Shown here: positions 2,827 through 40,423 of the stretch, piece after piece | How positions within the stretch are numbered: the first letter of the stretch is position 1 | How the letters are laid out: every line of letters starts with the position of its first letter | From: Botryllus schlosseri | Lineage: Eukaryota | Direction of reading: 5' to 3' | DNA length: 64,000 nt | Assembly: GCA_051294905.1 (NCBI GenBank) | Contig: CM119372.1 | Span: 38,256,001 to 38,320,000 of the forward strand | Made by a program: the position numbers and the translations under genes | The notes under the pieces: model-generated | The model's input: only the letters and a program-made list of their open reading frames with translations | Databases searched by the model: none | What the model was told of the DNA's origin: nothing

Positions 2827-3401
2827 ACTCCAAACGTACTATGAAATTCTAACTTTGGCCCTGGCACCGAAAAAGGCTGGGAACCACTGCTCTAGGCAAT
2901 ACCATCAGAAACTTGATAAGGAAAGAATGAACGTAGTTGATAATACCGCATCGCTTGCAAATTCCTTGTTGTCCAGCAATCTTTTATCAAACTGCTTTAA
3001 ATCCTCTTTACTGGCTACTGGCGCTGGGATAATATCTTCTGCAATTAATTGCGATTTATGTTTGTTGGTTCTTTTGCTTCTTATGCTCTGCAGTATTTCC
3101 AGCATCATCGGCTGCATTCTTGTCAAAGTCTCTTGGATTTGTTCCAAGGGATCTGGAACGTGTGCTGTAAAAAAATAACATTATTGTTGGATGATGATTC
3201 TTGATAATCAGCAGGGCAATTACATACATCAATCTCAATCACATACATACACTGCAAATACAGATTGCTAAAAAACAGTCGTCCCGCCTTCAGTTATATC
3301 ATATTGGGCTATATTTTACCTTGATATAAAACGTTACATATATATTGAACAGGAAAATAGGAACTAGTGCAGTATATGCCCGCTTTACTCGTGTGTCTAC
3401 T

Positions 3402-3529
3402 TGACGTCATTCATCATGATTCCCCATGATCCATTAATTCAATTGCCTTCTTCTATTACTTAAACCTTTTTTTCTTTTTATTCTCTCGTTTTTCCACACG
3501 AGCTAAAAAATGCTGACTCAGCATTTTTT
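3402..3529. promoter_or_regulatory. Enhancer-like terminal region: CRE (TGACGTCA, 3402-3409) and palindromic MARE/AP-1 site (TGCTGACTCAGCA, 3511-3523) flanked by A6/T6
   Basis: Exact consensus motifs in the short non-coding segment after the pol stop; function inferred. Confidence 0.4.
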
Positions 3530-3601
3530 CTAATTACGAGGTTTCAGTTTTGTCCGTTTTCCCTCATCATATCACATATGTACACTCTGCCAAAAACAGC
3601 T

Positions 3602-4550
3602 CTAAGTCTCTTGTATGACTGTGGGTGGGATAGGGCCTTCGCACAACACCACTTCTTGTACATTTGATTGCAGCAATACGAGTCCCTTATTCCTTAGATC
3701 TGCTGCTTTCAGGCAAATTACCACATTCCGCCTTTTGCTTTTCTTCGTTAGCGTTTTGCTCAAATGAATGAATCTCCTGTTCATCCGTTCAATGCCCGCG
3801 GACATTATCTGTCTTGCATTGTTTTCGGTCGTCATGTGGTACAACACCTCGTTACCTTCATATTTACAGTATGGAGGGGGCGTCCCTTTTGTATGTCCAT
3901 GGGCGGCCGCCAGACCATATTTCGAGGTTATTGCTCTGTCGCACCTTTGCATGACACTCTGTACTTCGTCCATTTCAATTTGTCCCCCAGTTTTCTTCTG
4001 GAAGACGCCACAAATATCATCCCAGGGATGGAACCCGTTCACCGAGTTGTCGCAAAGTTCATGTCGACAGTGATACATCAGCATCTGCTGTATTTTTTCC
4101 GGTCGGGGTCTTTTCTGTCGGTACGAAACGCTCTTTTTCTTGGGAATCGTCGCCCAAACATGTGGATCATCTTCTCCCGCAGCCATTTCCATCCAATAAG
4201 ATCGAGACAATCCATCTGACGTAAATACCTGCATCGTACTTAAATGAATTACCTCTTTTATTTGGAATCCTGCTAGATGATTTAGCCACCTCTGAATTAG
4301 GGGTTTTGGGCTTGGATTTTTCGCTTTGTCCGTCATTCTTTTGAGGAGCCCAAAAACCCCAGTATTATCAGTGATTATTGTAAAGGGTAAGGCTCTCAAC
4401 ATTGATTGCCATTTTTCCACCGAATCCTTTAAGGCTTTCAATTCCTTTGTACATGGATCATAAGCCTTTGCCGTTGGAGTCGCCCACTTTTGACTGTAGT
4501 AGGCAATTGGGTAAACCTTTTCGAAAGGCGGATTGCACCCTTTTCCGTCT
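3602..4550 (-). CDS. pol: Pol C-terminal part: RNase H C-half plus Tpt1/KptA-like RNA 2'-phosphotransferase domain (joined to upstream pol by a frameshift at ~4520-4550)
   Basis: Frame upstream of the called ORF reads KVYPIAYYSQKW..AYDPCTKELKALKDSVEKW..FTIITDN..RW..SDGLSR (RNase H). It is followed by YHCRH..NGF..AAHGHT..LYHMT..GIERMNRRFIHLS..VVLCEGPIPP (Tpt1-like). Confidence 0.85.
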
Positions 4551-39135: not shown

Positions 39136-39264
39136 GGTACGGATAGTGGTGGTTCTCGCCACGTCATAAACTAAATATAATCGCGCACTAGACCTAGACT
39201 ACCGTCTGTAAAAACACAAAATAATAGATGTCGTCATTTCCGTCCTGGAACCCTATAGCGGGGT

Positions 39265-40214
39265 TCACAATTGGGGTAACACAGAAGACCCGTCAAATTT
39301 GTCAAAATTATACTGTGGGTCATTGTGTATGGTGCGCAGGAGTGCCAAGAATCGATCAGTCTTCTGATGTTGACGTTTCCACAAAAACTCCCCTACGTAA
39401 TCGGTTAAAAGATGACGTGCTAAACCACGAGACCTATGTAAATGATATTTAAGCTGGCCCCAGGCCCCTTCAATTTCATTAGTACAAAAGGCTGTTCGAG
39501 GGTCCTTAAACCAACGGGAGTGGTCCACTACACCGTGTATATAACCCTTCCCCCAGCTCTCTATGCCCCTGTAGGAAGGGTAGGCATCGGTTAGAATTGT
39601 GGACCCCTCTGCCACATTTTCTACTATGAGTTTTCGGAATACTTCAGCAGTCCTGTCGGAAGTTATTTCTATGAACATTTTTCCGGTAGCTTTATCTATG
39701 CCTCCAAACCCCCAAATGGCTTTAACAGCTGGTCCTTTACCAGAGGCAGCCCGGCGCTTAGCTAAGTGCGTTTCATCAATAACCACGCAACCGCCTTCAT
39801 TTCCCAAACGTCGCTTGTTCCTGTGAAATTCGGCCGTACAAAGCTTTCGCAATTTGCCGCACCAGGTGACCGTTGAACGCTGGCTAATCTCAGCTTCATG
39901 CGCGATTTGGGTTTGCAACGCGTCATGGGCCCAAAAGTAGAATAATATCAACAATTTGGGAAGTTCTACCTTACTTCCTGCGAATATCGAGTTTTTCCGT
40001 ATAGTCGCCGTTGTATCACACGGGTTGCATCGCCACCTAAATCCATCACCGCCAGTAGTCGTAATTTCTTCATTCATTATTTTTTTACATCGTTTGCATT
40101 TCATCCTTCGCACCAACAACCCGTGATTTCTCAGAAATAGCACACAATCTCGTGTGTTTAGTAGTGCACCCGATTCGACCAAATTCAACACATTGTATGT
40201 TCTTTTCCGTGTAT
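39265..40214 (-). CDS. IS1595/ISXO2-like (Merlin) DDE transposase, copy 2 (probably with a short 5' exon at 40319-40280)
   Basis: CKRC..WRCNPC; VVIDETH, ILTDAYPSY, VDHS, TNEIEGAW, YVGEFLWK; no in-frame ATG at the N-terminus, but a splice acceptor at 40215. Confidence 0.9.
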
Positions 40215-40423
40215 CTGCGCAAGTAAATAATACGACATGTGGCGTCGATCAACTCCCCAACGTCTTTAGCGGATCAAACCCCCTTTTTCTTGGCGTTTCA
40301 TGTGTACTGACTCTCTCATATTTTAATCCCGTGTTATTCCTATGACAGGGTTATTTTTTTCACTTGTTCCCTACCAGACCTAGTGATTTTTTCACCCTCA
40401 TTTCAATGTACATGTAAAACACT

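Follow-up and report, generated by a model that had tools for sequence, protein, structure and literature searches.

How does a retrovirus-like element insert into a genome when it has no integrase? The question is raised by 64,000 nucleotides of Botryllus schlosseri DNA (assembly GCA_051294905.1, contig CM119372.1, positions 38,256,001 to 38,320,000 of the forward strand), referred to here as the window. Between positions 3360 and 40500 lies a unit with gag, pol and envelope-type genes in permuted order beside a Merlin/ISXO2-type transposase gene. It has no integrase and no long terminal repeats (LTRs), holds a tRNA primer site and a copy of a spliced leader in its interior, and is bounded by GG ends and an 8-bp duplication. 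The unit is likely one insertion of a reverse-transcribing element that exists in many copies, lacks integrase and has the ends of a Merlin. We put the probability that the element replicates by way of RNA to give a DNA circle, which its own transposase then inserts, at roughly 0.55.

One unit on one strand

Open reading frames (ORFs) and Pfam matches on the minus strand give the order transposase, env-like protein, second glycoprotein, accessories, gag and pol, confirming what an initial annotation of this DNA had claimed (transposase 39265-40104, env-like 36616-39135, gag 7014-9833). The unit measures about 37 kb and holds some 23 ORFs, including a reverse transcriptase (RT). Counting ATG-initiated ORFs of at least 100 amino acids, 23 lie on its minus strand versus 7 on its plus strand, and there is 1 in the 23.5 kb of the right flank. 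Many related copies were found across several read runs: over 2900-19300, contigs of runs X1, X6 and X8 cover 30/30 bins, mostly at 90-99% likeness.

One stretch of the unit is nearly devoid of genes and is assigned to it solely by its position between the two ends:

25547-33129, no strand: ORF-poor middle, 7.5 kb, no ORF above 105 codons

This middle, with its host repeats and its position outside the read comparison, is what would be expected had a gag-pol-accessory block and a transposase-env block been inserted separately, leaving host DNA between them and ends that match by chance. We regard such a history as very improbable. A perfect duplication and a GG-ended repeat surround the whole unit, a combination seen in 0/1000 shuffles, the two blocks share strand and skew, and each contains one of two related transposases.

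Ends and target-site duplication

The limits of the unit are set by four short features:

3352-3359, no strand: left copy of the 8-bp target-site duplication, GGAAAATA, identical (8/8) to 40501-40508
3360-3382, plus strand: terminal inverted repeat at the pol end, starting GG, 16/23 against the other end
40478-40500, minus strand: terminal inverted repeat at the transposase end, starting GG, 16/23 against the other end
40501-40508, no strand: right copy of the duplication, GGAAAATA, identical (8/8) to 3352-3359

Among 931 GG..CC pairs, 3360/40500 was the best; it was also the best in a motif-free scan, where its score of 24 exceeded 200/200 shuffles. An 8/8 duplication at a GG..CC pair arose in 23/1000 shuffles, and its combination with a 16/23 repeat in none of 1000. 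Over a longer stretch the inverted repeat matches at 18/30, and related subterminal copies lie at 40370 (minus strand) and 40480 (plus strand). Merlin ends, as described in the accessible part of PMC8101967, start with 5'-GG, carry inverted repeats 24-462 bp long and have duplications of 8-9 bp beside them; one active family reported there has 12 mismatches in 26 positions of its inverted repeats.

The initial annotation had set the ends at 3336 and 40415. The two 16-mers on which it relied are present and 14/16 inverted, yet as ends they are ordinary, since matches of at least 14/16 occurred in 25/300 shuffles and in 46/288 pairs of equally sized regions drawn at random from the window. Its flanking 8-mers are also there, 6/8 alike, whereas the perfect 8/8 pair lies elsewhere. 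The Merlin-size 8-bp duplication that it proposed was right in kind; judged by sequence, the ends are probably 3360/40500, which lie 24 and 85 bases to the right, rather than 3336/40415. A 5-bp TACAT duplication, offered as an alternative, was not among the ranked candidates when duplications and inverted repeats were scanned for jointly.

Read depth in the first and next bins was 431/1765 in X1, 1261/7066 in X6 and 8/101 in X8, a drop that puts the left edge at 3260-3403, varying with the depths assumed, and cannot separate 3336 from 3360. This indifference, together with a 12/14 repeat and 6/8 duplication that tie for best at short range, is what can be said for 3336/40415 as the true ends. 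A related idea has the element entering a chance break through host repair, like plant endogenous caulimovirids, for which repair-driven insertion is described in the accessible part of PMC10377300. We hold this pair of ideas to be the least probable of the explanations considered: the 3336/40415 ends have no GG, an imperfect duplication and a chance level of 8-16% for the repeat alone, while the rival pair 3360/40500 agrees with the Merlin rules for GG starts and duplication size.

Both flanks had further been taken for parts of one decayed transposon, for which Pfam gave no support (12 frames, best E 0.048). Broken minus-strand frames at 40680-40950 and 2900-3170, without Pfam match, are possible pieces of one decayed gene. 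Self-BLAST found no LTR-like repeat. Nor did we find a TG..CA LTR pair with a 4-6-bp duplication: there is no long direct repeat, and no CA adjoins the primer site. Tandem repeats of 42 bases occupy 61214-62117 and 1937-2826, with inverted relatives in the left flank.

A clade of Pol proteins without integrase

Three features make up the pol end of the unit:

4543-7083, minus strand: 5' part of pol, with aspartic protease motif, RT (YxDD) and the start of RNase H (RVT_1 1.4e-17, RT_RNaseH_2 1.9e-10)
3602-4531, minus strand: 3' part of pol, with the rest of RNase H, a Tpt1/KptA RNA 2'-phosphotransferase (PF01885, 4.1e-11) and the stop
3477-3482, minus strand: candidate poly(A) signal AATAAA behind pol

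Similarity to the relative P0001 passes into another frame in the interval from 4543 to 4531; pol of this copy is thus interrupted within RNase H, and the copy would depend on others. The order protease-RT-RNase H-Tpt1 contains the protease-RT-RNase H arrangement of Metaviridae and Retroviridae. Pol overlaps gag in another frame, as it does in two metagenome loci, L001 and L002. Against solved structures, a Pol profile matched Ty3 (4e-53), 8r0s ('Enzymatic polyprotein', 9e-52), which we take to be the RT of cauliflower mosaic virus, and foamy virus (about 1e-32).

Pfam found no integrase in 22 ORFs, and tblastn of seven gypsy-type Pol integrase regions against the window gave a best E of 0.057. 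A search with P0001 among 1.84 billion representatives returned a small group of proteins with 34-49% identity, ranking over a multitude of gypsy-type ones (24-33%). From this set and one further search we hand-picked 21 clade proteins, many of them fragments; 0/21 carry an integrase domain and 7/21 carry Tpt1, compared with an integrase in 3/4 outside controls. A tree built by a quick method places nine clade RTs, the window's own and those of eight relatives of sufficient length for alignment, together on one side of a branch (SH-aLRT 99), with 27 other RTs on the opposite side. Judged from these sequences, the absence of integrase is a trait of a clade and not of one copy. The C-terminal slot of clade Pols varies, holding Tpt1 alone, Tpt1 with an endonuclease/exonuclease/phosphatase domain, an inserted dUTPase, or nothing (P0032/P0180, P0051, P0035).

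In the P0002 cluster, seven full-length Pols (among 15 listed of 31 members) lie on contigs of seven different lengths (0.26-1.47 Mb), as expected if an integrase-less Pol inserts repeatedly; the argument is weakened in that some of these contigs may represent one locus assembled more than once. Among 11 loci from a metagenome scan, L001 and L002 were the 2 close ones, and both stop inside pol or at most 90 bases from its end. Pol, transposase and env had no close relative in scans of viral contigs, and none was found in prokaryote genomes.

Two Merlin/ISXO2-type transposases

The unit encodes two transposases:

39265-40216, minus strand: Merlin/ISXO2-type transposase adjoining the right end (Pfam DDE_Tnp_IS1595 1.3e-10, ORF 39265-40104)
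17628-18575, minus strand: second Merlin/ISXO2-type transposase (Pfam 2e-17, DDE intact)

In the right-end protein the D-D-E residues and two CxxC motifs are intact. Its similarity to other transposases begins upstream of the first ATG, behind a likely splice acceptor and about 284 bases inside the right end; relatives at 65-76% begin to match at the same place. A short intron likely lies within 40200-40310, before this homology, and P0181-P0183 lose similarity there as well. Loss of that intron in some copies would mark passage through RNA. The closest named protein is the product of a Styela clava gene (43%).

The initial annotation saw the transposase in the place of an integrase. By position this holds once the ends are joined, although the transposase is a separate gene and the pol stop lies 242 bases before the left end. 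A pol-transposase fusion across the junction of the ends was considered and rejected, as pol closes with a stop.

The second transposase is 39% identical to the first and has its own relative, P0186 (72%). An X6 contig lacks precisely 17339-18641, a segment bounded by two adjacent ORFs; this marks the gene as a gain/loss cassette that some copies do not have. We found neither inverted repeats nor a duplication at the cassette edges and rejected a nested Merlin, no ends of which were found. The length of 2632 that P0017 and P0196 have in common proved a coincidence, P0017 being unrelated.

Internal primer site and spliced leader

Between the accessories and gag lies 1.5 kb of non-coding DNA, with these features:

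10143-10160, minus strand: primer-binding site, 18/18 complementary to the 3' end of tRNA-Ile(AAT) including CCA
10211-10231, minus strand: two AG sites joined to the leader in contigs, candidate trans-splice acceptors
10284-10306, minus strand: stretch predicted by folding to pair with the leader copy, 80 bases downstream of the leader
10384-10408, minus strand: DNA copy of the host spliced leader (25/25), with no GT after it
10409-11349, minus strand: non-coding, candidate promoter or U3-like region by position only

RNA run X24 contains thousands of reads that match only 10384-10408; on the 3' side they continue into diverse sequences, and on the 5' side into what is presumably a template-switch oligonucleotide. 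Because the reads match this stretch alone and then diverge, we read it as the host leader. It occurs once in the window and is identical to the 'Chordata 1' leader in the accessible part of PMC3795323. The leader, which is an ascidian one, and the Styela clava match of the transposase together make an ascidian the likely host.

The primer-binding site stands before gag, as in Metaviridae and Retroviridae, when judged with human tRNA-Ile(AAT) as printed in the accessible part of PMC13439101, which may differ from the host tRNA; a pattern search for the primer tRNA returned 23 loci, no tRNA gene among them. A 116-codon frame with two hydrophobic segments (9845-10192) lies between primer site and gag. 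Leader joints connect 10384 with 10214 (X1, X8) and with 10231 (X8). Among 12,792 windows on both strands, 10284-10306 is the best site for pairing with the leader on the minus strand and, excluding the leader, the second overall. An ATTAAA lies 30 bases behind the leader copy, and 10409-11349 shows length variants among copies in contig joints. Rfam gave no match over 3000-41000, and no RNA data set was among those listed for 3000-9900.

The stretch from the leader at 10408 to the poly(A) signal near 3480 looks like one mRNA. This would fit a Merlin with glycoprotein genes that captured a processed, trans-spliced gag-pol mRNA as cargo, with no permutation and without the whole ever having been one retro-genome. 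Read depth is also higher over gag-pol than over the accessories in X1 and X6, a figure that is not a copy number. We consider this origin improbable, given that no poly(A) tract or duplication surrounds the gag-pol block, that the integrase-less Pol clade must have some route into genomes, and that env and gag-pol complement each other as the two parts of a single virus layout, encoded on the same strand.

A proposed cycle through a circle

Retroviral minus-strand DNA is begun at the primer site, extended as far as the RNA's 5' end and then jumps to the 3' repeat. In the unit, RNA starting at 10408 of a linear copy would exit the element after 7 kb, past gag-pol. With primer site and leader internal and LTRs absent, reverse transcription of the whole unit would need a circular or tandem template.

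We infer that full-length RNA would be made from a circle (excised or episomal) or from tandem copies joined at their inverted repeats. Host trans-splicing would replace the 5' end of this RNA with the leader; the DNA copy of the leader, met again after one turn, could then serve as the repeat for first strand transfer. The terminally redundant RNA would start at the leader and be primed by tRNA-Ile, and its product, by analogy with caulimoviruses, would be a circle with one U3-leader-primer region. The Merlin transposase, rather than host repair, would probably open this circle where the inverted repeats meet, at the junction of pol with the transposase gene, and integrate it, creating the 8-bp duplication. 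The initial annotation likewise derived the gene order from a circle opened between pol and the transposase; the internal primer-binding site, the internal leader, the lack of a terminal direct repeat and the Merlin-type ends agree with that permutation.

Several observations count against the ends or the cycle proposed here. The 23-base length over which the inverted repeat was scored was picked after inspection of the sequence, and at 14 bases the two candidate end pairs tie, at a score found in 5/150 shuffles. For a Merlin the repeat is short and imperfect (24-462 bp in the accessible part of PMC8101967). The copies seen in the read runs document 2900-19300, and 19300-40500, which includes the ORF-less 7.5-kb middle, lies outside that comparison. 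The loose ends and joints listed, beyond which there were 696 loose ends and 4 joints, included neither a circle junction nor an empty site nor a foreign flank. In X24, of which 6% was read, 3787/3794 reads matched over just part of their length, the leader in almost every case, leaving almost no element RNA. The AATAAA behind pol lies inside the left end and would cut read-around RNA unless suppressed. Each leader joint comes from one contig, with a short side of 24-26 letters, in runs whose RNA or DNA kind was guessed. No distinctive polypurine tract could be singled out among 21 purine runs of at least 12, and no linkage of such a transposase to Pol was established in any other organism. 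One of those 21 runs, 40279-40291, lies near the right end and presumably resembles retroviral plus-strand primers.

Permuted order, ends and duplication would be explained equally well if a Merlin had jumped into a circle or concatemer of a pararetrovirus-like virus, leaving a giant DNA transposon that moves by cut-and-paste with its reverse transcription idle. The Teratorn scenario offers a precedent (accessible part of PMC10175614); the scarcity of RNA in X24 and the AATAAA behind pol agree with it, as does a copy whose pol is broken and whose middle has decayed, yet whose two transposases are intact. We think this history unlikely, if well within the bounds of serious consideration. The primer site is still 18/18, the gag, env and glycoprotein ORFs are open over 2.5-3.4 kb, and across gag-pol the likeness between copies is 90-99%. 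RNA-level recombination would also fit the accessories, which are host-type and intronless, and the gain/loss cassette, which lacks transposon ends.

If copying through RNA with insertion by the transposase is correct, the element could belong to a hitherto unknown lineage of enveloped, reverse-transcribing viruses of animals, with genomes of about 37 kb replicated as circles, in which the leader trans-spliced by the host acts as strand-transfer repeat and a Merlin transposase working on joined inverted repeats replaces integrase and LTRs. We advance this fuller description tentatively, giving it somewhat less than an even chance.

Gag, glycoproteins and accessory genes

The remaining genes of the unit are the following:

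7014-9833, minus strand: gag, 939 aa, CCHC zinc knuckle (zf-CCHC 5e-4), predicted capsid-like helical region
11350-17327, minus strand: intronless accessory genes (four short paralogues, a ubiquitin-conjugating enzyme, two IAP genes, unknowns)
18644-25546, minus strand: further accessory ORFs, by ORF calls and Pfam, including a leucine-rich-repeat protein
33130-36528, minus strand: second glycoprotein, 1132 aa, Ser/Thr-rich stalk and C-terminal hydrophobic segment by hydropathy
36616-39135, minus strand: env-like protein, 839 aa, with signal, basic cleavage motif, hydrophobic peptide, long helices and C-terminal anchor

Gag has homologues in L001 and L002. In a low-confidence model (pLDDT 58), 10/17 rows matching its N-terminal half were retroviral, Arc or PNMA capsid lobes, weakly (Z 4.5-5.8); the region had no Foldseek and no Atlas match. 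The layout of the env-like protein suggests a class I fusion protein, and its language-model neighbours are viral fusion proteins (0.88-0.91, weak). It had no Pfam or PDB sequence match, and a single-sequence model (pLDDT 37) was unusable. The N-terminal part of the second glycoprotein is paralogous to the env-like protein (BLASTP 1e-10). Gag and the two glycoproteins may together form enveloped particles.

Pfam matches in the accessories include UQ_con (2.4e-47), BIR (3.2e-23 and 3.9e-36) and RING. Four short paralogous ORFs at 11350-14599 (128-166 aa, 22-34% alike) have no Pfam match. Nested host repeats lie near 24100-24770, where the sequence presumably resembles a hAT-like miniature element, and at 29093-29180, which matches the left flank. 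Outside the unit, 47537-48011 has 158-base inverted arms, 99% complementary and 159 bases apart, and is a young miniature inverted-repeat element.

Comparison with known systems

Mobile elements are divided by insertion mode into class I (RNA) and class II (DNA). Known swaps are the exchange of integrase for tyrosine recombinase in DIRS and the union of a transposase with a DNA virus in Teratorn.

With Merlin/IS1595 the unit shares DDE_Tnp_IS1595 with D-D-E, 5'-GG ends and the 8-bp duplication, and imperfect repeats are tolerated there (accessible part of PMC8101967); the DDE domain is present in both transposases, and the duplication is that of this one copy. Known Merlins are small and single-gene, and none is described with retroviral genes in the same part of PMC8101967. 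In place of a single transposase gene in a DNA-only element, the unit has about 23 ORFs including an RT.

Teratorn, as the accessible part of PMC10175614 describes it, likewise has virus-like genes within short inverted repeats and a target duplication, its own DDE transposase, captured host-type genes and a proposed circular phase. It joins an alloherpesvirus with a DNA polymerase to piggyBac, whereas gag, protease, RT and RNase H, a tRNA primer site and a Merlin-type transposase are found here. Herpesvirus core genes and a piggyBac transposase were absent by Pfam on the window ORFs.

Like Caulimoviridae, the unit has protease-RT-RNase H without integrase and no LTRs, and caulimovirid DNA is circular and copied through RNA (accessible part of PMC10377300). 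The same part of PMC10377300 describes them as viruses of plants that have a movement protein, lack a proviral step and become inserted through repair. The unit differs in its envelope-type genes, animal host, transposase, fixed-looking ends, Tpt1 and size of about 37 kb. No movement protein was found by Pfam on the window ORFs.

DIRS-type elements have a circular intermediate. DIRS, Ngaro and VIPER resemble the unit in that a different recombinase takes the place of integrase beside an LTR-type RT, and differ in having a tyrosine recombinase and no protease, in contrast to the protease, env, tRNA priming, DDE transposase and 8-bp duplication found here (accessible part of PMC12440569). Pfam on the window ORFs gave no tyrosine recombinase match.

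Envelope-bearing Ty3/gypsy elements, Burro, lokiretroviruses, Odin and Troyka share a CCHC gag, overlapping pol, tRNA primer site and env; in the accessible parts of PMC6431247 and PMC12440569 they differ from the unit by an integrase in Pol, two LTRs and 3-6-bp duplications. Burro also exceeds 30 kb and has BIR and ubiquitin-related domains (accessible part of PMC6431247).

In the literature searched, outside which lay most subscription papers, Repbase reports and preprint supplements, no such combination was found. The findings point towards a family of large enveloped tunicate viruses that is still undescribed. If the proposed cycle is true, the element would be a living model of a pararetrovirus-like circle gaining a proviral stage, bearing on how integrase joined RT, and its spliced leader, used as strand-transfer repeat, would show how a retroelement survives where the host replaces RNA 5' ends. 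The unit lacks a defining feature of caulimovirus, DIRS, Teratorn and Burro alike. An RT element inserting by a terminal-inverted-repeat transposase would, if true, stand as a third kind beside the known swaps and open a new route of genome entry for a retrovirus-like element.

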